Origin: a phage
Sequence record: PV419677.1
DNA: 64,000 bases
Reading direction: 5' to 3' (one strand)
Shown here: positions 840 to 25,054 of the stretch, piece by piece
How positions within the stretch are numbered: position 1 is the first letter of the stretch
Layout of the letters: each line of letters opens with the position of its first letter
The notes under the pieces: generated by a model
What the model was told of the DNA's origin: nothing
Seen by the model: the letters and a program-made list of their open reading frames with translations, nothing else
Database searches by the model: none
Program-made: the position numbers and the translations under genes

Positions 840-1514
840 TTATTTTATTAATGTGTTAAGTCTTAGCTTAGTCATAAACGGATAACGTTCCAACATTGGC
901 TTTACCCAGTATCGAGGATGCAATTCCTTTTTATATGCTAGGACCAACTCTCGAGCTTGCTCGACGGTATCAACTCCGAAGTTTTTACACATTTCTTGCC
1001 TATCTTTTTCCCACCGGCGCTTTCTCAATTCATCCTGAATCTCTTTATTTTTAAAATGTTCATTATTGCGAGAATGTTTTGTACCCTTGGTTGGACTGTA
1101 ATGTCTTCCTTTGACAAACCCATCCGGAACATCTTCCCATGGAAATAGTTTTATCGATTTGACACCATTATTAAAGTAAACTTTACCGGTTTGACTTTTA
1201 GAAATATTGTCAGCGTGCCTACGTCTTAACCAACCAAATAATTTATTATTGCGTTTCAAATACTTGCTTGACTGACTCATAGATGTGGCGGCAAAACTTA
1301 AACCTGGATTTGTATGATATATTTTAACCAATAGTTGATGGGCTACATAATGTTCCTCTGGAGTCAAATCGACCAGATTATCTGGGTCATTGGAACCGCC
1401 CATACATTTTGGAATGATGTGATGAGATTCTTTATATGAAATCAGGACCCTATTACGGGCCCTTTCAATTAACGATAAATATATAAACTGATAATTCAAA
1501 GTGAATTTCTCCAT
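840..1514 (-). CDS. HNH homing endonuclease (freestanding, Mob-like)
   Basis: Motif [31 protein letters not shown] is a classic HNH core; AT-rich relative to neighbours; absent from this position in T4; start overlaps the 3' end of gene 2 by 19 nt. Confidence 0.8.
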
Positions 1515-2332
1515 ACTTTCTGTGAAGAAAATCTTTTGCCTTTTGAAAAAAACTGCTGAAGGGGGAGTAATACAACGTTTGCCCAGTCGCTGGGCTTGAT
1601 TTCAGTGATAGTACCTTTTATATTGCCAGGTATATATGCTTTAATCATCTGGTCAGCCCCTTTAAATCCCTTCACCTTTGACCAATCAATCTTCAGATGA
1701 GTCTTGTTTGTAATCGTAGGAGTATTGGCATATTGTTTAAGAAGTTCCTCAAGGAACTCTTGACGTGCCTTCGGTGGAATATAGTGCAAGTTCAAACCAT
1801 ACATCAAATTGTGCTTACCTAGCCCAAGATAAATGATTAACGGATATTTGTCCCAGTATGGAAGAGTATCCTTATGCTTTGCATCATAGATATAAGCATA
1901 AAGTTTGCCCGGTTGAGGTTTAGCCGTTACGTGCCCACGAACTGATTTCTTAATTGTCTCTGCGAACCATCTGGCAGATTTGGTGTTGCTTGCAGCACCT
2001 TCGTTAGCAATCTTATCTCTTATGCTCTTTCTAAAGCTATTCACCATTATCAGCTGGCGTTCTGCCTTCGTAAGTTTACCAGCAGGTTTCTTTTTGAGTT
2101 TAGATACTTTATAAGCAGTCTGAATTCTTGAATTGTATCTTGACATGCTTTTGGTAAAGGTCGAATAGTTGATTCCTTTCTCTTCAGCAAACTTCTTCGA
2201 GGTCATTCCCTTTTCTTTTGCTGTATAAAATTCAACCCCTATCTCAACCCATTGTTGTTCGGATTTACTGGGTTTCGGACCTGGTTTATCTGCAGATTCA
2301 TTGATAAATGTAAAAATACTCATCCTTTCCAT
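1496..2332 (-). CDS. 2: gp2 DNA end-protector protein
   Basis: 278 aa (T4 gp2 about 274 aa); synteny between genes 3 and 4. Confidence 0.75.
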
Positions 2333-3048
2333 CCTTCTATAAAATTAATCAAATCATTTTTTAAATAGTATGGTAAGGTTTCTGTATAGCCATCGACCAT
2401 AATATCTTTATTCAAATAACCTCTGTCTTTTATATATAATACAGATATTGCGGATTCTAACATTTTGGCTTGTGCACCCAGTTCAAATTCTCGATAATAT
2501 AATTTGGAACTAATGCATTTGGAAAAATGATTTTGCTGCCACAATCTAAAATCATGATTGGAAGTTATACCATACTTTAAAGCAGTTCCGCCCGGATATT
2601 CTATTTTATTAACATAAACAATAGCAGGTTTCTTTGCGTTAAATCCTTTGTGACAACAGTTTGGACATCCTTTGTTTTTTGTTGTAAAGTTGTTTAGATT
2701 TGTAATCCAACTGGTTGAACATGTAGAACACTTTATATAGGCTTTTGATTTTGTAAAAGTTGAATATGTGGTATCCCATTTATCAAAACTATACAATGGA
2801 TTCACGGAATTTATTCTTGTGATTGCATCTAATTCAGATATTAATTTGCTTTCACCATAAGAACGTTTTAAATTACAATTAGAACACCAACTTTTTGTTT
2901 TTAACTTATGCTTTAAAACAGTTGCTTTGTATTTGCATGTTTCTTCACATATAAAGCACTTTACAAATATCAAAGTTTTTGATTTATTAAAATCGCCTTG
3001 TCCCACTATCTCGCCATTTGTGATGTTAAAATCTGAACAATCGTACAT
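2320..3048 (-). CDS. Cys-rich protein (four CxxC pairs) with GIY-YIG-like C-terminal half; putative nuclease inserted between genes 2 and 4
   Basis: N-terminal [23 protein letters not shown]; C-terminal [29 protein letters not shown]...YREFELG resembles the GIY(10-11)YIG, Arg and Glu pattern of I-TevI-type domains; start ATG overlaps gp4 stop (TAATG), stop overlaps gp2 start. Confidence 0.45.
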
Positions 3049-3500
3049 TATAAACCCTTATATCCCATTTTTCTAAGCGCATCTTCAGTAATCAATCTAA
3101 ACTGGATGCCCATTTTATCGGCTACGGCCTGCGCTGCTTTCCACTTATCCTTGTTGACGGCCCAAGTGTACATTTCGTTCATGAATCTCTTCTTGCTCGC
3201 GGCAGTCGTATTAACTGGTTTTGCTGGAGGCCTTGTTTCCTTTTTGGGTTTGACCTCAAAGAAAAACTGTTGTCCATTTGAGAATTTCACCCACATATCC
3301 ATGTAATATCTGCGTTTTTTACCATCCGCATTACTGAAATATGGAATAATTACGGTCTCTGACCCCCATTGCACCACATCTGGATGATTATCCAACCAGT
3401 TAAATACAAATTTTTCCCAGTTTGACCTGTATGTGATTTTCTTCCAGTCTCCTTTGTACTTGGCAACGTTTTTTGGCTGCCACTTCCCGGAGTATGCCAT
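3048..3500 (-). CDS. 4: gp4 head completion protein
   Basis: 150 aa, same length as T4 gp4; SD AGGAGG before ATG at 3500; synteny. Confidence 0.75.
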   Translation of the reverse strand: MAYSGKWQPKNVAKYKGDWKKITYRSNWEKFVFNWLDNHPDVVQWGSETVIIPYFSNADGKKRRYYMDMWVKFSNGQQFFFEVKPKKETRPPAKPVNTTAASKKRFMNEMYTWAVNKDKWKAAQAVADKMGIQFRLITEDALRKMGYKGL

Positions 3501-3548
3501 ATAGCCTCCTAATAAATATTGATATACTTATTTATAAATGGAGGCTTT

Positions 3549-4151
3549 ATGCTTTTTTCATTTTTTAACCCAATTGATTATGATGCTAAAACAATCAGAA
3601 AAAACTCGGCATCATTAACGAAAGAAGACGTCTTAAGCATCCCAATGACTGACATCTTCAGAAACTATCGTGCATATTTTGATAAGGTTGCGGTTAATTA
3701 TACACCGAAAACATATTACATCGCTGGAGCTCCAAGACCTGAAGAACTTGCATATCAGCTCTATGGTAATACTCAACTCTATTGGGTTCTCCTTATGCTT
3801 AATGATATCTATGACCCGTATTATGGTTGGATATGTTCACAAGAATCATCATATCAGGCATCAATTCAACGCTATTCGAATATAGGTGGTAATCAGGTTC
3901 TTTATCATGTAAATGAAGATGGTGAAAAATTCTGGAATCTTGTTTCTTATCCTGATAATCCATACACATGGTATGATAAAGGTGATAAGAACAAATTATA
4001 CCCACAGTATGAAGGCCCATTAGCTGCAGTGGATATCTACGAAGATGCTATTCGCAAAAATGAATATAAACGAGAAATAAAGATAATCGACCCTAATGAT
4101 ATCGAATCATTTATTTCGGCATTAATCCGCGAGATGGAGAAGGCGCTATGA
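3549..4151 (+). CDS. 53: gp53 baseplate wedge protein
   Basis: Track ORF begins at a TTG (3519); ATG at 3549 preceded by GGAGG gives MLFSFFNPIDYDAKT..., matching the recalled T4 gp53 N-terminus; about 200 aa. Confidence 0.85.
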   Translation: MLFSFFNPIDYDAKTIRKNSASLTKEDVLSIPMTDIFRNYRAYFDKVAVNYTPKTYYIAGAPRPEELAYQLYGNTQLYWVLLMLNDIYDPYYGWICSQESSYQASIQRYSNIGGNQVLYHVNEDGEKFWNLVSYPDNPYTWYDKGDKNKLYPQYEGPLAAVDIYEDAIRKNEYKREIKIIDPNDIESFISALIREMEKAL

Positions 4152-5890
4152 TTAATATGTCAGATAGTGTAAGTTGGTTCGTCGGTGTTGTCGAAGACCG
4201 AATGGACCCACTTCAACAAGGTCGTGTTCGTGTTCGTGTATGGGGTATGCATCCATATGAGAAATCGCAAGGGCCTGTAAAAGGTATCAGAACTGAAGAC
4301 CTGCCCTGGATGTCTGTATTGATGCCAACATCATCTGCATCGGTTTCCGGTATTCAAACTGCCATGACTGGTATGGTCCCGGGTACTCAAGTATATGGTC
4401 ACTTTTTGGACAAATGGAAGCTCAATGGATTAGTCCTTGGTACATATGGCTCAGCATCAAGACAGAAGGCAAACACAACAGAAGGTTTTAGTGACCCCAC
4501 AGGGCAATATCCGCTTTATGTGGGCAATGATGCTGCTGCGCTTAACCGAGGCGGTGAGGTCGGTTATGATGACACTTCAAACGTAATTCAGGATGCAAAC
4601 CTTGATTTGGGTATTAACCCTGATGGCCTTGATTTGAGTCAAGTTAAGCCAGATGATAATCCTAATTTCACAATTGAAAATATGCTTCACCGCGATGAAG
4701 GTCTTCGTCTGAAAGTATATTGGGACACTGAAGGTTATCCTACTATAGGTATAGGACACTTAATTACACCACAACCTATTAGAGATATGAATCAGATAAA
4801 CAAAATATTATCCAATCAAATAGGCCGTGAAGTTAAAGGTAACCCTGGTGCAATATCAATGGACGAGGCTTCTAAGTTATTCCAAGAAGACCTTAAAAAA
4901 GTCCAAAATGATATAGGTAGACATAGTGTTGTAGGTCCGGTTTACAATAAAGAAAACCGTTCAAGACAAATGGCTCTTGAAAACATGGCTTTCCAAATGG
5001 GATTAGGTGGACTTGCTAAATTCCGTGGAATGCTTAGTGCAATGTTAATAGGCGATTATAAAAAGGCATTTGAAGAAGCTCGCAATTCAGTATGGTTTAA
5101 CCAAACTAAAGGACGTGCATCAAGGGTATCAATGATTATCCTTACTGGTAATATGGAATCATATGGTATTATGGCCCCTAAAGAAATGGAATTTAAAGGG
5201 CGTTCATATAGGATGATTCAAACCTTTGCGGCCCCTACAAATTCTGACCCGGCCGACCCGTGGACTCCAGAAGATACGAGGATTCTATTTAAAGAGCCAG
5301 AATCAAGTTACAAGGGCGAATATCCTTATGTACAGACAATGCAAACCGAAGGCGGACATATTCAGGAATTCGATAACACTCCAGGACAAGAACGTTATCG
5401 ACTGATTCATCCGACCGGTTCCTATGAGGAAGTTGCACCAGATGGTCGTAAGACTTCGAAGACGGTAGCCGATGGCTATTATATGACCCAGGGTGATTCA
5501 AGCACTTATGTTGGCGGGAATAATAAAGTCAACGTTGGCGGTGATGAAACCTATTACAATATGGCTAACGTTCGTCGTCAGACTGATGGAAACGAAAGTA
5601 TTCATATCAGAGGGAATGAAACCAAAACTATCGAAGGTGATGGTACAATTATCGTCAAAGGTAATGTAAGTATTCTTGTCGAAGGTAATGCTGAAATAAC
5701 TGTCAAAGGCGATGCAAAAACTCTTGTCGAAGGTGACCATGATTATACGGTAAATGGTAATGTCAAATGGTCCGTTAATGGAAACGTTGATATGACCGTG
5801 GCTGGCAATTGGTCCGAAACAATGTCAACAATGAGTTCTATTGCATCTGGTCAATATACTATTGATGGTTCGAGGATTGACATTGGCTAA
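4148..5890 (+). CDS. 5: gp5 baseplate central spike with lysozyme domain
   Basis: 580 aa; lysozyme core EGLRLKVYWDTEGYPTIGIGHL (T4 lysozyme-like); C-terminal beta-helix repeats (VKGNVSILVEGNAEITVKGDAKTLVEGD...). Confidence 0.95.
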   Translation: MINMSDSVSWFVGVVEDRMDPLQQGRVRVRVWGMHPYEKSQGPVKGIRTEDLPWMSVLMPTSSASVSGIQTAMTGMVPGTQVYGHFLDKWKLNGLVLGTYGSASRQKANTTEGFSDPTGQYPLYVGNDAAALNRGGEVGYDDTSNVIQDANLDLGINPDGLDLSQVKPDDNPNFTIENMLHRDEGLRLKVYWDTEGYPTIGIGHLITPQPIRDMNQINKILSNQIGREVKGNPGAISMDEASKLFQEDLKKVQNDIGRHSVVGPVYNKENRSRQMALENMAFQMGLGGLAKFRGMLSAMLIGDYKKAFEEARNSVWFNQTKGRASRVSMIILTGNMESYGIMAPKEMEFKGRSYRMIQTFAAPTNSDPADPWTPEDTRILFKEPESSYKGEYPYVQTMQTEGGHIQEFDNTPGQERYRLIHPTGSYEEVAPDGRKTSKTVADGYYMTQGDSSTYVGGNNKVNVGGDETYYNMANVRRQTDGNESIHIRGNETKTIEGDGTIIVKGNVSILVEGNAEITVKGDAKTLVEGDHDYTVNGNVKWSVNGNVDMTVAGNWSETMSTMSSIASGQYTIDGSRIDIG

Positions 5891-5924
5891 TATACTTCCA
5901 ATGAGCACTGACCTAGGAGACTCC

Positions 5925-6422
5925 ATGGAAGGAGCCTCAATCGATGTTACGTTTACAGCTCAATTAGAAACAAACGAAACATTAGTCGAAATAAATATAA
6001 CTGAATATGAGGCCACCCCTGGCGTTAATGTTGAGGGTAATCATCTTTATGGTGTTTATGAATCCGTGTTCGGATTTGCGGATGATGCACTTAAATATCG
6101 GCTTAATGACGAATTTAAAACTGCTGGTTCATGGGAAGACCTTCCTACCGATAAGAGTACTCAATTGTATCTCTGGAGGGCCCCATCGAGCCTCCAGAAG
6201 GTCTTTTCATACACGGTAACCCTAACCTATGACTTTCAAGAAGAGAGCTCTGGCGGAGACACAGGGAACTCTGGTGGCAGTAATAGCCGTGCAGTTAATG
6301 AGACCGACCCACCTCCTGCGCCAGTAAGAAAGACAATGACAAAAGTTTACACAAAAACTATCGTTGGCAACTGGTCAAGATGGGCAGATAAATTGCGTTC
6401 ATACGTATACGCGAGGGATTAA
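5925..6422 (+). CDS. gp5.1-like protein
   Basis: ATG at 5925 has SD AGGAG 5 nt upstream; track ORF (5841) overlaps gp5; alternative start 5901 lacks SD. Confidence 0.5.
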
Positions 6423-6715
6423 TGGCTGGATTAAGTTTTAATCAATGTGTTACAGCAGGCCACGAAGCATGGCCGCCGACTGTAATTAATGCAACTCAAG
6501 GTAAAGTATTCACCGGGGGAATTCCAGTATTAGTTGCCGGAGACCCTATTACCGAGCATACCGAAATTAAAAAACCATATGAAACCCATGGCGGAGTAAC
6601 ACAACCAAGAACTTCAAAGGTATTCGTCACCGGTAAGAAAGCTGTTCAAATGGCAGACCCGATTTCATGTGGTGATACTGTGGCTCAAGCCTCGGGGAAG
6701 GTGTTCATAAAATGA
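6422..6715 (+). CDS. 5.4: gp5.4 PAAR-repeat spike tip protein
   Basis: 97 aa (same as T4 gp5.4), position after 5.1. Confidence 0.75.
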
Positions 6716-7389
6716 ATAAAGAATTTAATTTTGTGTATATAACCACAAACCTTAAAAATGGTAAAAAGTATATAGGTAAACATTCCACGGATGATATGTT
6801 TGATGGATATTATGGTACAGGAGAGCTTATCAAAAAAGCTTATAAAAAATATGGAAAGGATTTGTTTGAGACAAAAATAATAAAATTTTTTGATACTGAA
6901 GATGAGGCTTACGACTACGAAGAATTTTTAGTAGACGAATCTATAATTTATGATGATAGATATTATAATATAGATTTGGGTGGCAAAGGAAGTATGCGAG
7001 GAAGAAAACATAAGGAATCTTCAAAGAAGCAAATATCAGACAAAATGAAGGGTAGGTCAAAGCCACCACGAAGTAAAGAATATATTGAAAATTTTGAAAA
7101 AGCTATGGCCAAAAGGAGAAAGCCTAAACCACCTCCTAAGCCGAGGGTTTTTGTTAGAGGAGAAGAACATCCTTTATATAAAAGATCAAGACCGCAATCT
7201 GTTATTGACCTATGTAAACTTAATAATAGAAAACACCCCATATGGCAATCATATGATATTTTATTCAAATTATGGAAAGAAAATGATAAGCCAGGTTGGA
7301 GAAAAATGACCAGATTAGCCATTGAAAACGGATTTCCAAATACGGCTTATGATAAAATGATAAAACAATTTAAACAGGATTCAGAATAA
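6712..7389 (+). CDS. GIY-YIG homing endonuclease (Seg-like), inserted between 5.4 and 6
   Basis: N-terminal [18 protein letters not shown] (GIY...YIG), YYGTG, YNIDLGG; basic Lys/Arg/Pro-rich C-terminal DNA-binding region; strongly AT-rich; ATGA overlap with gp5.4 stop and TAATG overlap with gp6 start; no gene at this position in T4. Confidence 0.8.
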
Positions 7390-9335
7390 TGGCTACTCCT
7401 ACGAATTACCAATTAACAAGAACCGTTAACGCTATCCCAAAAGTATTTGTGGGAGCTACGTTTGAAGAAATTAAAAAGAATATCATCGACTGGTTATCAA
7501 GCCAGGATGAATTTAAGGATTATGATTTCGTAGGTTCGCGAATGAATATCCTGATTGACATGCTTGCATATAATACATTGTATATGCAGCAGTTTGCTAA
7601 TACAGCGGTTTATGAATCATTTATCGGAACTGCAAACTTAAGGTCTTCAGTTGTTCAGGCTGCGCAGGATAATGGATATCTTCCATCTTCTCGCTCGGCT
7701 GCAAAGACTTCGGTTATGTTGACATGTTCTCATGCTCTGCAGCCATCGAATATTGAAATCCCACGAGGAACTAAATTCCTGGCTTATGCTCGTGATACAT
7801 CAGCCGACCCTTATGTTTTTGTTACCACGGAAAACGTTATCGCGGTTAAAGATATTAACAACCAATACCTTCCGATTGTATCTCTGGCACAGGGTCGTAT
7901 TATTCGTACGGAACTTTTATATGACCCGAAACAACCTATTCTTATCCGCGACCCGGATATTGACCGCAAAGAAGTTAAGTTATATGTGAATGGTGTTGAG
8001 TGGGATGACTGGACGAATAAATCAATGGTTCACGCTGGTTCGACTTCCACCATATTTTATATGCGTGAAACAATCGATGGCTATACCGAATTTTTCTTCG
8101 GTGAAGGCGAATCCACCAAATCTGTGGCCGGTGGCGTTATGGAAGCCAACTATATTGGCGGTCTTAAACCTGTGCAAGATTCAACAATTGTTATTGAGTA
8201 TCTTCGTACTTCCGGGGCAGATGCAAACGGCGCTGTCGATTTCAGTTATGCTGATACGTTGTCTTATATCACAGTGGATAAGATTACCGAAAACTATAAT
8301 AACGACCCTGATTATGTCGGTGCCGATGGCGGTGGTGACCCAGAAGATATCGAACGTATCCGTGAACTGGCTGTTGTTAAACGTGAAGCGCAGATGCGTG
8401 CTGTCACCGGAACGGATTATGATACCTTCGTATCCGAAAGATTTGGCTCAATCGTGCAAGCCGTACAGACGTTTACAGACGCTAATAAACCAGGGTATGC
8501 GTTTATATCAGTTAAGCCTAAATCGGGCTTGTATCTCACTGCAGTGCAGCGTGAGGACATCCAGAACTACCTTAGCGAGTTCAACGTATCAACAATTACA
8601 CCATCGGTAATTTCTCCGGATTATTTGTTCCTTAAACATAATATCAAAGTGTCTTATGCGCTGAACAAATTGCAAGAATCTGAACAATGGTTGCAAGCAC
8701 AAATCATTAATCAGATTGACCGTTATTATATTGATGAAGTTGAAATCTTTAACAGAAGTTTTGCTAAGTCAAAAATGCTTACATACGTGGATAATACCGA
8801 CCATAGTATTCTTGGTTCGTCTGCAACCATTTCGATGGTGCGTGAGGTCCTGAACTTCTTTAAGACTCCGGAATCCGGCATTAAATACTATAACCAGTAT
8901 GGCAACCGTTCAGTCGAATCAAGCGAATTTGAATTTGTTCCGACTACAGGTGAAGCCTATAACGTTCGCATTGTTGCAACTGATAAAGATTCTCGCGGTG
9001 ATGGCAAAATGGTAATTGGTCCATTCCGTCCGGGTGATGTTATCGAAAACGTAAACATCCAGCCTTACCTGCAAGATGACTTTAATAAAATGGAAGCTCC
9101 GGCTGACCAAACAGTTTATTACGCAATTGGCGAAATTGACTATTACTCTGATTATATTTTTTGGGATATCGCTGCGATTGGATTGACCTCCGACCGCTTT
9201 GAAGTTCAATCAATCGAACTTTATGCAAGTCCCAACCAAGATAATATATACACGCAAGATGGTTCACTGATTGTATTTGAGAATGACCTTCGTCCACAAT
9301 ATACAAAGATTGACCTTGAACCGATTACACTATAA
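7389..9335 (+). CDS. 6: gp6 baseplate wedge protein
   Basis: 648 aa (T4 about 660), synteny. Confidence 0.9.
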   Translation: MATPTNYQLTRTVNAIPKVFVGATFEEIKKNIIDWLSSQDEFKDYDFVGSRMNILIDMLAYNTLYMQQFANTAVYESFIGTANLRSSVVQAAQDNGYLPSSRSAAKTSVMLTCSHALQPSNIEIPRGTKFLAYARDTSADPYVFVTTENVIAVKDINNQYLPIVSLAQGRIIRTELLYDPKQPILIRDPDIDRKEVKLYVNGVEWDDWTNKSMVHAGSTSTIFYMRETIDGYTEFFFGEGESTKSVAGGVMEANYIGGLKPVQDSTIVIEYLRTSGADANGAVDFSYADTLSYITVDKITENYNNDPDYVGADGGGDPEDIERIRELAVVKREAQMRAVTGTDYDTFVSERFGSIVQAVQTFTDANKPGYAFISVKPKSGLYLTAVQREDIQNYLSEFNVSTITPSVISPDYLFLKHNIKVSYALNKLQESEQWLQAQIINQIDRYYIDEVEIFNRSFAKSKMLTYVDNTDHSILGSSATISMVREVLNFFKTPESGIKYYNQYGNRSVESSEFEFVPTTGEAYNVRIVATDKDSRGDGKMVIGPFRPGDVIENVNIQPYLQDDFNKMEAPADQTVYYAIGEIDYYSDYIFWDIAAIGLTSDRFEVQSIELYASPNQDNIYTQDGSLIVFENDLRPQYTKIDLEPITL

Positions 9336-9354
9336 GCCTCTTCGGAGGCTTTTT
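9335..9354 (+). terminator. terminator-like hairpin between genes 6 and 7
   Basis: AGCCTC-TTCG-GAGGCT followed by TTTTT right after gp6 stop; SD AAGGA then gp7 ATG at 9364. Confidence 0.4.
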
Positions 9355-9363
9355 AAGGAAACC

Positions 9364-12300
9364 ATGATGAGTGTTAAAGCCCCTTATGTAACCAGCTTAC
9401 GGATTGATAAACTATCTGCTAACCAGGTTAGCATAAAATGGGATAATGTTGGCGCCAACTTTTATTATTTTGTTGAGATTGCTACGACAAAAGAAAATGG
9501 TGTTGCTATTCCAGAAGAAAATCTGTTATGGAGGAATTTAGGTTATACTCCAGACAATGAATGGTTCGAACAAGATTTTATTCGTCCAGTATCATTTTAC
9601 AAAATGCGTGTTGCTGTTGCAGCAATGGGTTTTGAACAATCTGATTGGGTTTATACCGAAGAATTTGAAACCTTTGCAACTAACGCATACACATTTGAGC
9701 ACATGCGTGAATTTACATTAACAAATAAATTCATCGAAGAAAAATTCACAAACAATAACCAAGCTTATATCAACTTTAATAATGATGCAATTATGGCATC
9801 GCTGATGTCTGAAGATTTTAGCTTTACTCCTGCGTATTCTCATTTGTCTTCAATTTCAAACTATGTATTAAAAGAAGACCAATATCATGAAATTCAGGGT
9901 AACATTCAGCCGGTATGTAACGATGTTAATCGTACAATGATTGCTGAACTTGGTGGCGTACTGTATTTGTTTGAACGATTCCAGACAACTGTCAAAGTCT
10001 CCAATGATAAAGGGCAGAACTGGTATTATGTAAAATTGTTTAATGACCGTATCGGTAACCCAGTATCGCGCACAATTTATTATCAATCAGATACAACAAC
10101 TTACGTACTCGGGTATGACCGAATTTTTTACGGCCGCAAATCAAGTGACATAAGATGGTCTGCTGATGATGTTCGATTCAGTTCCCAGGATATAACATTT
10201 GCAAAAATTGGTTCGGATATCAATCTTGGATTTGATATTGAAATATTTGGCACATACGCAAGACTTCCTGCTTATATCTCGACAATTGCTGAAGCAATCA
10301 CTACGACCGATTCCATGATTTACGTTGCCGGGCGCGACCGCGTGTACAAAGCTAAATCTTCTGATGCTCCAATTGATAACGACCCCAACTCCCCAACATT
10401 CGGTGAAAAATTATTTGAAGCTGGATATAGCACAATAAGTGGTAACCCCAAAGCTGTTTGTTACAAGATGGATTCAATTGACGGTGAAGTGTTTGCATTA
10501 ATCACGGGTGAAGTAAAAGAAGAGCGACAAGACCCGACTAAACCTGAAAACGTTGTCGATTCGTTATCTAAGGGCGTTTATAAATTAAATGCTGACACCG
10601 ATACATGGACACGAGTTTTTGGTAACACAGAGGATGAACGTCGACGTATTGAACATGGTTACACAAGCATGTCAACCGACGGAATTGAACTTTTTATCAG
10701 TTCAAGTAACTTCCGTTATTCCGTAGAGCCGGATACTGAACTCCCTGCTAAGTATCCTGAAGAAGTTAATGAAGCAGTCAAATATGTGTATGATGAACAA
10801 TGGATACATGACAAGCATTATTTGATGATGAGTTTTAGGTCGAATAAAGATTCAGGTTGGGAAGAGTTTAAACCTGGCCGTATGTCATATTACGCTGAAC
10901 CGTTCTTTAACTGGTCTCGTCGTGATGATACTCGTTGTTGGATTACTACGTCAGACAGAGCTCTGGTTGTATATAATGACATGCTATATCAAAAGATTAT
11001 CGATACCTTTGGTGGTTCATCCCCTGAACGTATTGTACACGAATACTGGAATAAAGGTCAAGTAAAAGTTACTTCGCCTAACATCGAATTCAATGGCTTT
11101 AAAAAATACGCCTCGGGTATTATGTTACACAAAAATACTGGAGAGCTTATTGGCTATTTTGAATTTGACTATCGTAGACGTGATGAAGTTAGATTAATCT
11201 GGAAACCGAAAGAAGTTATGTTCACTGCAGAATTACAGAACCAGGAACATGATATTCCATGGACACCAGATAATGACGAACAAGAGAAAGACCCAGACTT
11301 GCGTCCTCTTTTAACAAAGATGGTTCCGGATAGTTATTTGCTCCAGGATAGCAACTTTGAAAAATTCTGTGAATATTATTTGCAGTTTATCAGTGATGGC
11401 TCTGGTACCTATTATAACAACCTTTTGAACTTGATTCGCAACCAGTACCCGCGCGAGGAAGATGCATGGGAATACCTTTGGAGCGAAATGTACAAAAGAA
11501 ATATATATTTGTCAAAGACCAAGCGTGACGAAGTAGTTCGTTTCTTTGAAGCAAGACAGTCTGATTTTTGGGCCACTAAGGGTACTGAAGCATCCTATAA
11601 GTTTTTGTTCAAATTGTTATATAATGAAGACGTTGAAATCGATATTGAATCCAAGAACGGAACCGAGTATGACATAATCGTCGAATCTGATAACATCAGC
11701 GAAGATATTGTTGGACAAACAATTTACACACCAACTGGTCGCAGTAACGTTACTTATATGGAACGTGACTACAAACAGGGTAAATTGAGATGGCGTATCA
11801 CGATTCATAACTTACTTGGTCGCTTTATTGTTGGGCAAGAAATTAAATCCGAAAGGACTTCCTTTGAAGGTATGATTGTTCAGGGTGTTCGTGGGAAAGA
11901 ATTACTTAGCAACAACATCGATTATATCAACCGAAATCGTTCTTACTATGTAATGACCATTAAATCAAGTCTCCCAACATCTCGTTATCGTAATGACGTA
12001 TTGCGATTTGTTCATCCGGTTGGATTTGGATTCGTTGGAATTACATTATTGACAATGTTTGTTAATGCTGGTCTGTCATTAAAACATACAGAAACTATTA
12101 TCAATAAACTGAACAACTATCGTTGGTCGTCTGGTATTCCGTCAGAATGGTGCGACCGTATCGCAGTTATTGGGGCCGATGGAAACATTGAGCATAGTCC
12201 TGTTACAGGTGAAGCAGTATATAATATTGCTCCTAATGCAGGTTTACCATTCCCATTACCAGCAGATTACGATGCCGAAAACGATTTTTCGGATTTTCAT

Positions 12301-22747: not shown

Positions 22748-25054
<2,307 letters not shown>

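Follow-up and report, generated by a model that had tools for sequence, protein, structure and literature searches.

A probable mobile Seg-type GIY-YIG homing endonuclease gene between genes 5.4 and 6 of a Gaprivervirus-like phage

The 64,000-nucleotide (nt) stretch of phage DNA in sequence record PV419677.1, the whole of which is referred to here as the window, contains on its + strand an open reading frame (ORF) at 6712..7389 (stop codon included) that starts with ATG and encodes 225 amino acids (aa). This gene, designated seg below, is located between gene 5.4, which encodes the PAAR tip protein, and gene 6, which encodes the baseplate wedge protein gp6, in a Gaprivervirus-like backbone of the T4 type. 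The data presented here make it very likely that seg is a T4 "Seg"-type homing endonuclease gene, free-standing, mobile and functional, and that it belongs to a lineage specific to the 5.4/6 junction; its enzymatic activity, exact cleavage site, expression timing and self-immunity are parts of this reading that we only infer. A preliminary description drawn up from the letters alone had placed the ORF at exactly these coordinates and had proposed a Seg-like GIY-YIG gene inserted between 5.4 and 6. Both elements of that proposal were borne out, the first by family profiles, by a profile and predicted-fold match to I-TevI and by similarity to SegA and SegE, and the second by sister phages in which the site is either occupied or empty.

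The closest orthologues were found in phages VR26 and CLB_P2, whose proteins are 98.2% identical to that of the window (at the aa level) and are encoded at the same junction. More distant orthologues occupy this junction in the Serratia phages X20 (gp256) and LC53 (putative endonuclease), with 64-67% identity, and in the metagenomic contigs L009, L010 and L011-L013, with 55-65% identity. All full-length orthologues that were found, spanning 55-98% aa identity, are thus located between the PAAR gene and gene 6. An IMG/VR scan with the single protein returned VR26 itself only, and an alignment-based scan of IMG/VR yielded 80 loci, in all of which similarity was confined to short parts of the N-terminal domain (at most 56% identity), so that the set of full-length orthologues did not grow. 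The gene is of a known class, and public records already annotate it at this site: the VR26 record KP007362.1 (gp163; L001 3913..4590) lists "segA; homing endonuclease" between the gp5.4 and gp6 homologues, and the CLB_P2 record reads "homing endonuclease". Naming differs between records, the X20 orthologue being labelled "putative endonuclease segE".

Occupied sites are rare among relatives. When the 2.5-kb neighbourhood of seg was used as a megablast query, 540 phage records matched, and the insert was spanned in only four of them (VR26 twice and CLB_P2 twice), while 36 of the 40 best matches had both flanks joined without seg. Within Winklervirus, X20 and LC53 carry seg and six sisters with approximately 98% identical flanks do not. 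The empty site of Gaprivervirus, Dhakavirus and T4 consists of the TAG of 5.4, an 8-nt spacer and the ATG of gene 6, without overlap, and this spacer (GAAATAAA or similar) holds the AGGA-type Shine-Dalgarno sequence of gp6. In Winklervirus, by contrast, a TAATG overlap joins 5.4 to 6 even where seg is absent. For T4 itself, where the last base of 5.4 is 81072 and the first of gene 6 is 81081, the earlier statement that no gene is present at this position proved correct.

Evidence for the mobility of seg comes from a comparison of VR26 (Gaprivervirus) with CLB_P2 (Dhakavirus). These phages are 100% identical over 795 nt (window 6686-7480), comprising 26 nt from 5.4, the whole seg ORF and 91 nt from gene 6, and their baseplate flanks show 14-40 differences per 100 nt in most of the intervals compared. 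On the basis of this alignment, the identical tract indicates a recent lateral transfer between the genera. Moreover, because the tract shared by VR26 and CLB_P2 is minimal, it argues for a break close to the insertion point.

A quite different history would be that seg is an ancestral gene of the baseplate cluster, inherited vertically and lost many times without being mobile. The occurrence of the same position and junction design (QFKQD codons holding the gp6 Shine-Dalgarno sequence) in several T4-like genera would fit such a history. It is opposed by the presence of seg in only two phages among the 540 matched records, by sisters whose 98-99% identical flanks precisely lack it, by the identity of VR26 and CLB_P2 seg DNA inside flanks that are 20-30% divergent, and by empty sites that are intact spacers with their own Shine-Dalgarno sequence and no deletion scars. 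Base composition points the same way, as the guanine-plus-cytosine (GC) fraction of the seg ORF (0.307) lies 10-14 points under that of its neighbours (0.446 for 5.4 and 0.412 for gp6; 0.407 for the entire window), in line with the strong AT-richness noted earlier. We therefore regard vertical inheritance as extremely unlikely.

The window allele of seg differs from that of VR26 and CLB_P2 at 20 nt, of which 16 are synonymous and four non-synonymous (4 aa). Its genomic context differs as well: the VR26 orthologue sits in a VR26-like backbone, whereas the window allele sits in one that hardly departs from the seg-less phage ECML-359 (at 0-3 positions in every 100 nt across most of 3500-10400). 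When the window was compared with its four closest seg-less phages, 0-2 differences were counted in 6422-6588 (167 nt), against 12-15 in 6589-6712 (124 nt). Downstream of seg, the first 400 nt of gene 6 show 1-3 differences from the three closest of these phages and 12 from the fourth, MN01. The 3′ 124 nt of 5.4 (6589-6712, + strand), as delimited by this density of differences, would thus look like a co-conversion tract derived from an unsampled seg-carrying donor.

Two observations tell against this tract, or at least against its limits. First, 6607-6616 is also polymorphic among seg-less phages; more generally, reading all differences from ECML-359 within 6589-6631 as conversion is weakened by the several sites there that vary among seg-less phages. 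Second, no limit can be set for the tract downstream of seg, as none of the compared phages varies within the initial 92 nt of gene 6. Only positions 6695, 6696, 6700 and 6703 are strictly linked to seg (three of three phages with seg versus six of six without). The case for conversion would therefore lean on the density contrast and on these four linked sites, with a soft tract boundary.

The invariant 5′ end of gene 6 (7389..7480, + strand) requires separate consideration. This 92-nt tract is identical in nine phages of Gaprivervirus and Dhakavirus, both with and without seg, and the first variable column is not met before 7481. In a 7-kb alignment of VR7 with IME08, both of which are seg-less, the longest identical run is 96 nt, including the spacer, and the next longest is 47 nt. 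Third codon positions of this pair are identical at 29 of 29 sites in codons 1-30 and at 20 of 30 in codons 31-60, after which about half agree, and the inter-genus gradient of similarity extends from the tract to about 7570. Nucleotide-level constraint on gene 6 was rejected as an explanation, since divergence at these codons is normal in other pairs of genera: for T4/VR7, X20/VR7 and T4/X20 the first 30 codons are ordinary, with 10-14 identities out of 23-25. As judged from these alignments, the tract appears to reflect a recent inter-genus homogenisation that adjoins the seg site and fades with distance into gene 6; nothing comparable is seen in 5.4.

This might in turn mean that the 92-nt tract serves as a downstream homology arm that enables homing between genera. 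A more speculative idea, which we consider doubtful, is that the recognition or cleavage region includes the 5′ end of gene 6 and that repeated Seg-driven conversion homogenised it across the two genera. If so, homogenisation would also have reached phages that never kept seg, in the form of "immunised" alleles acquired by co-conversion without the gene. General mosaicism remains the alternative for this tract because other inter-genus blocks of low divergence exist, such as 4786-5183 in the gene for gp5. In that lysozyme region of gene 5, Gaprivervirus and Dhakavirus show 5-9 differences per 100 nt versus 20-30 elsewhere; it represents a second region of inter-genus exchange, and the window contains no endonuclease gene adjoining it. 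Further blocks at 4586-4686 and 5583-5883 (gene 5 and the gene 5/5.1 boundary) are 17-33% divergent from ECML-359, to which the rest of the backbone is 99-100% identical, and close to VR26 (4-10 differences per 100 nt). These blocks represent ordinary T4-like mosaicism and mark the window phage as recombinant between an ECML-359-like and a VR26-like lineage.

The assignment of seg to the GIY-YIG family was supported by several profiles. The protein matched the phrog_314 "homing endonuclease" family (expectation value (E) 3.7e-43) and the PADLOC "HEase" profile (E 5.2e-29), and it was the sole GIY-YIG profile match among the ORFs of the 64-kb window (E 2.5e-42). It also matched TIGR01453, group I intron endonuclease, with E 5e-12, under the cut-off of that model. 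The nuclease domain itself covers residues 5-94 (6724..6993, + strand). Its N-terminus reads NFVY-x10-YIG; the "canonical GIY...YIG N-terminus" of the preliminary description is thus literal for the YIG box only, the first box being FVY rather than GIY. A search of PDB sequences with the seg protein as a single sequence gave no match at E ≤ 1, and a profile of 24 homologous sequences was required to reach I-TevI, whose catalytic-domain crystal structures it matched (1LN0, E 5.9e-5).

In the alignment of this profile to 1LN0, residues Y9, Y20, E70 and N86 of seg (+ strand codons 6736-6738, 6769-6771, 6919-6921 and 6967-6969, respectively) pair with Y6, Y17, E75 and N90 of I-TevI. Among the 24 homologues, Y9 of the F-V-Y9 box, the Y20-I-G22 box 10 residues further on, and N86 are invariant, and E70, at the position of the metal-binding Glu, is at least 90% conserved. 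The predicted fold, a three-stranded sheet with flanking helices, is that of GIY-YIG nucleases.

A number of observations weigh against a functional enzyme of this family. Two Pfam scores are borderline (25.9 bits against a cut-off of 25 for SegE_GIY-YIG, and 22.1 bits, under the cut-off of 22.6, for GIY-YIG), the C-terminal domain described below matches no Pfam family and no solved fold, and none of the papers found in the literature searched characterises a Seg located at the 5.4/6 junction, the LC53 paper remarking only that endonucleases vary among winklerviruses. In addition, no conserved Arg is present between Y20 and E70 that would correspond to R27 of I-TevI: the helix carrying R27 and H31 in I-TevI is replaced in seg by an 11-residue loop that bears the conserved DGYxGSG motif and the invariant Y33 and G35. 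The preliminary description had looked to catalytic Tyr, Arg, Glu and Asn residues in a proper alignment. Both Tyr, the Glu and the Asn are present and conserved, no Arg aligns with R27, and asking for this Arg is too strict for the clade because T4 SegA, B, C, D and E have the same R27-less arrangement. As endonuclease activity is listed for SegA, B, C and E (that of SegD being not determined; PMC2988022, Table 1), the missing Arg is weak evidence against activity and, from these alignments, is a feature common to the SegA-E clade that does not betray inactivation. The near-invariant K23 and H24 (GKHST) might be candidate substitutes for Arg27.

Both the absent Arg27 equivalent and the borderline Pfam scores would be expected of an inactive or decaying relic, kept in place as its 3′ end holds the ribosome-binding site and start context of the essential gene 6, which would make a clean deletion difficult. 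The location of the gp6 Shine-Dalgarno sequence within seg codons would fit this idea, as would a frameshifted public allele, P0005. This 1122-nt Logan contig encodes a 198-aa seg allele of 84% identity whose tail after approximately residue 150 corresponds to the frame of the +2-frame ORF 7085..7309 of the window, and it may be a copy that has undergone a frameshift and is perhaps decaying, or it may reflect misassembly of a contig of only 1.1 kb. A relic is nevertheless very unlikely. The ratio of non-synonymous to synonymous substitution rates (dN/dS) between seg and its orthologues is 0.05-0.15 along the entire protein, across lineages that are 55-98% identical, which shows purifying selection on the protein, and 100 residues, drawn from both domains, are invariant in six orthologues. 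The 795-nt tract shared between genera likewise indicates recent, active spread rather than decay.

Downstream of the nuclease domain, a basic linker extends over residues 95-160 (6994..7191, + strand), with 24 Lys and Arg against seven Asp and Glu (net charge +17) and two predicted helices at residues 102-112 and 122-135. It contains a NUMOD3-like motif that remains sub-threshold (E 0.045; 14.1 bits versus a cut-off of 20.4), at the position where T4 SegA has a significant NUMOD3. The remaining residues, 161-225 (7192..7386, + strand), are predicted to form a four-helix domain (helices 162-173, 177-190, 195-206 and 209-224) that aligns with the C-terminus of T4 SegA (SegA side LAIEAGFPNKSYARMLEVF) and presumably constitutes the DNA-binding module that reads the target. 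Seg had been credited with a basic C-terminal tail; a basic region does exist, but it is the central linker, the last 65 residues having a net charge of only +4. The protein can thus be modelled as three modules: a GIY-YIG nuclease of the SegA-E type, a very basic NUMOD3-like linker and a SegA-like helical domain.

Alignment to the T4 Seg proteins, suggested earlier as a check, supported the relationship, with identities of 50% over 111 aa for SegE, 33% over 221 aa for SegA, 37% for SegC and 25% for SegF. SegE is the closest T4 match to the nuclease domain, shares the clade motifs GKHST...DGYxGSG...KKYG...E...YN, and, like seg, is free-standing and flanked by conserved genes (in the inh/uvsW region). 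Past residue 111 the two proteins are unrelated, and the insertion sites and targets differ. SegE is known to cut the intergenic region of seg-less phages and to home with approximately 100% efficiency and with co-conversion (PMC2330249). SegA, in contrast, can be aligned over its full extent, as no other T4 Seg can; it has the same length, NUMOD3 at an equal position and a similar C-terminal helical domain. Its gene is located elsewhere (23570-24235, between uvsX and beta-gt) and it cuts in uvsX (PMC2988022), whereas the seg of the window sits between 5.4 and 6. Orthology to T4 segA was rejected because of this different genomic site and the identity of only 33%, and the "segA" of the VR26 record, which derives from this resemblance, is a name given for similarity and makes no statement of orthology. 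By sequence similarity, the catalytic domain of seg appears SegE-like and its C-terminal half SegA-like.

The remaining T4 enzymes are less similar. SegC is encoded in the same baseplate cluster, two genes upstream between 5.1 and 5.3, but it measures only 140 aa, lacks the C-terminal domain and shares 37% identity with seg across the nuclease domain. The distance is greater for SegF and SegG, and SegC and SegF align over part of the protein only. I-TevI, encoded by the td intron of T4, shares the catalytic fold, the Y/Y/E/N residues and the nuclease-linker-DNA-binding plan. It differs in being intron-encoded and in having the R27/H31 helix, whereas seg is not in an intron and is without that helix; no zinc finger was identified in seg, and its C-terminal domain is unlike that of I-TevI. 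Consistently, no Rfam family was found around seg at E ≤ 1, and thus no intron was detected there.

The flanking genes support the placement of seg within the tail-tip and baseplate cluster. Gene 5.4 (6422..6715, + strand) encodes a 97-aa protein with a match to Pfam PF05488 (E 2.1e-10), and gene 6 (7389..9335, + strand) encodes a 648-aa protein with matches to all five gp6-specific Pfam domains (E 1e-35 to 1e-45). At the 5′ junction, the seg ATG (6712-6714) and the 5.4 TGA (6713-6715) overlap by 4 nt as ATGA; at the 3′ junction, the seg TAA (7387-7389) and the gp6 ATG (7389-7391) overlap by 1 nt as TAATG. The "four-base overlaps" of the preliminary description therefore apply to the 5′ end only.

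At the left end of the cassette, the last codons of 5.4 (6694..6711, + strand) carry seg-linked substitutions that create a Shine-Dalgarno sequence for seg (GGGGAAGGTG). Specifically, AAA GTC is changed to AAG GTG, both changes being synonymous, and TCA is changed to GGG or GGA, which converts Ser93 of gp5.4 into Gly. The resulting AGGTG (6699-6703) lies within 5.4 codons and ends 8 nt before the seg ATG, and GGTG occurs at the matching place in five of seven seg-carrying lineages. In the Winklervirus-type lineages (X20, L004 3501..3508; L009, L010 and L011) the PAAR gene runs 8 nt into seg, e.g. CTTAATGGCTAA, and its last residues are thereby altered from VFIK to VFLNG, compared with the ATGA overlap and only Ser93 to Gly in the window. 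Insertion thus alters the C-terminus of the tail-tip protein in a manner specific to the lineage.

At the right junction, the 3′ codons of seg (F-K-Q-D-S-E-stop; 7370..7391, + strand) replace the empty-site spacer TAGGAAATAAA and contain the gp6 Shine-Dalgarno sequence AGGA at 7376-7379, 9 nt before the gp6 ATG. The DNA encoding QFKQD is conserved as CAATTTAAA(C/G)AGGA in all seg orthologues, despite protein identities to the window seg of 55-67%. The gp6 ATG is fused to the seg stop as TAATG in five lineages, and a sixth has it 17 nt inside seg. It had been proposed that insertion preserved the translational coupling of the baseplate genes. This view cannot be maintained: in the closest relatives, as in T4, the empty site is TAG, 8 nt and ATG without overlap, so that coupling was created rather than preserved in this lineage. 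The cassette thus swapped an 8-nt spacer for two junctions that each have a ribosome-binding site embedded in coding sequence. Folding of 81 nt over the seg or the gp6 start gave RNA hairpins no better than those of shuffled sequences (z -0.8 and +0.6).

No exact match to the late promoter TATAAATA was found on the + strand between 3536 and 13489, the one-mismatch matches being located at 5990 and 6841. Sigma-70-like sites were not enriched and remained under the shuffle expectation; the promoter scans covered late and sigma-70-like motifs. Given the absence of a late-promoter consensus and of sigma-70 enrichment, seg looks like a promoter-less cassette within the late baseplate transcript. 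This anatomy is like that of T4 SegC, SegF and SegG, whose genes are cassettes that lack a promoter, ride on polycistronic messages and have signals for host expression inside the endonuclease ORF (PMC2988022); SegE differs in having its own upstream promoter (PMC2988022), whereas the seg of the window has no upstream late-promoter consensus. An embedded signal for an essential downstream gene is a known means by which such elements escape deletion, as has been described for promoters within segG, segA and segE (PMC2988022).

Homing by double-strand-break repair with co-conversion has been described for T4 seg genes (PMC2988022), and by analogy with SegE, SegF, SegG and SegB (PMC2988022, PMC2330249) we infer a similar mechanism for seg. 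In a mixed infection, the enzyme would cut the genome that lacks seg, either in the empty 5.4/6 junction or close by, after which the break would be resected and repaired by recombination from the seg-carrying genome. Such repair would copy seg and short flanking tracts into the break. For the tract shared by VR26 and CLB_P2, the left crossover would lie no more than 26 nt from the start of seg, and the right one at some point of the invariant 92 nt with which gene 6 begins. The carrier would presumably be protected, since both the insertion and the linked base changes modify its site.

A nuclease of this kind could also mainly serve the phage, either through marker exclusion of co-infecting relatives or through recombination or amplification of tail-tip and baseplate genes, which would be compatible with homing. 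T4 Seg enzymes indeed cause localised marker exclusion (PMC2988022), SegB has recently been reported to promote segmental amplification of anti-defence loci (PMC13096335), and mosaic blocks as well as the homogenised inter-genus tract adjoin seg. However, its neighbours, the PAAR tip gene and gene 6, are conserved structural genes and not known anti-defence genes, and the rarity of seg among close relatives argues against a large benefit. A role of this sort as the main one is thus highly improbable next to that of a mobile homing endonuclease gene.

Additional endonuclease genes were noted in the surroundings of seg. In the metagenomic T4-like contigs L011 (2098..2712) and L012 (1756..2370), which carry seg at the PAAR/gp6 junction too, a second endonuclease ORF of 204 aa with NUMOD3 is located between 5.1 and the PAAR gene, a slot that T4 fills with segC. 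The 5.1-6 interval thus seems to be a hotspot for endonuclease genes. Further away, the window contains a 242-aa ORF on the - strand (2320..3048) that matches phrog_681 "endonuclease" (2.5e-29) and weakly a treble-clef zinc finger; a PADLOC scan of this ORF gave no match. It lies between gp2 (1496..2332) and gp4 (3048..3500), overlapping both, and these two genes are directly adjacent in VR26, ECML-359, VR7, CLB_P2 and IME08. Copies that are 100% identical occur at the same place in RZ, DK-13 and fPSFA, and a 69% copy occurs in Yersinia phage MHG19. This ORF is probably another mobile endonuclease gene.

Beyond careful annotation, the importance of the finding is small, in that seg is one more free-standing homing endonuclease of the Seg type. 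Nonetheless, it defines a Seg lineage bound to the PAAR-tip/gp6 junction in at least three named T4-like genera and three metagenomic lineages, and for this lineage inter-genus transfer is clear at the DNA level. As phages with and without seg are available as sisters in culture collections (VR26/VR7, X20/CHI14 and CLB_P2), the 5.4/6 junction would offer a natural system in which to study homing and the lengths of co-conversion tracts. It is also a clean case of a selfish gene that has recast the signals by which adjacent genes are translated, with its own Shine-Dalgarno sequence placed in the last codons of 5.4 and that of the essential gene 6 placed in the last codons of seg.

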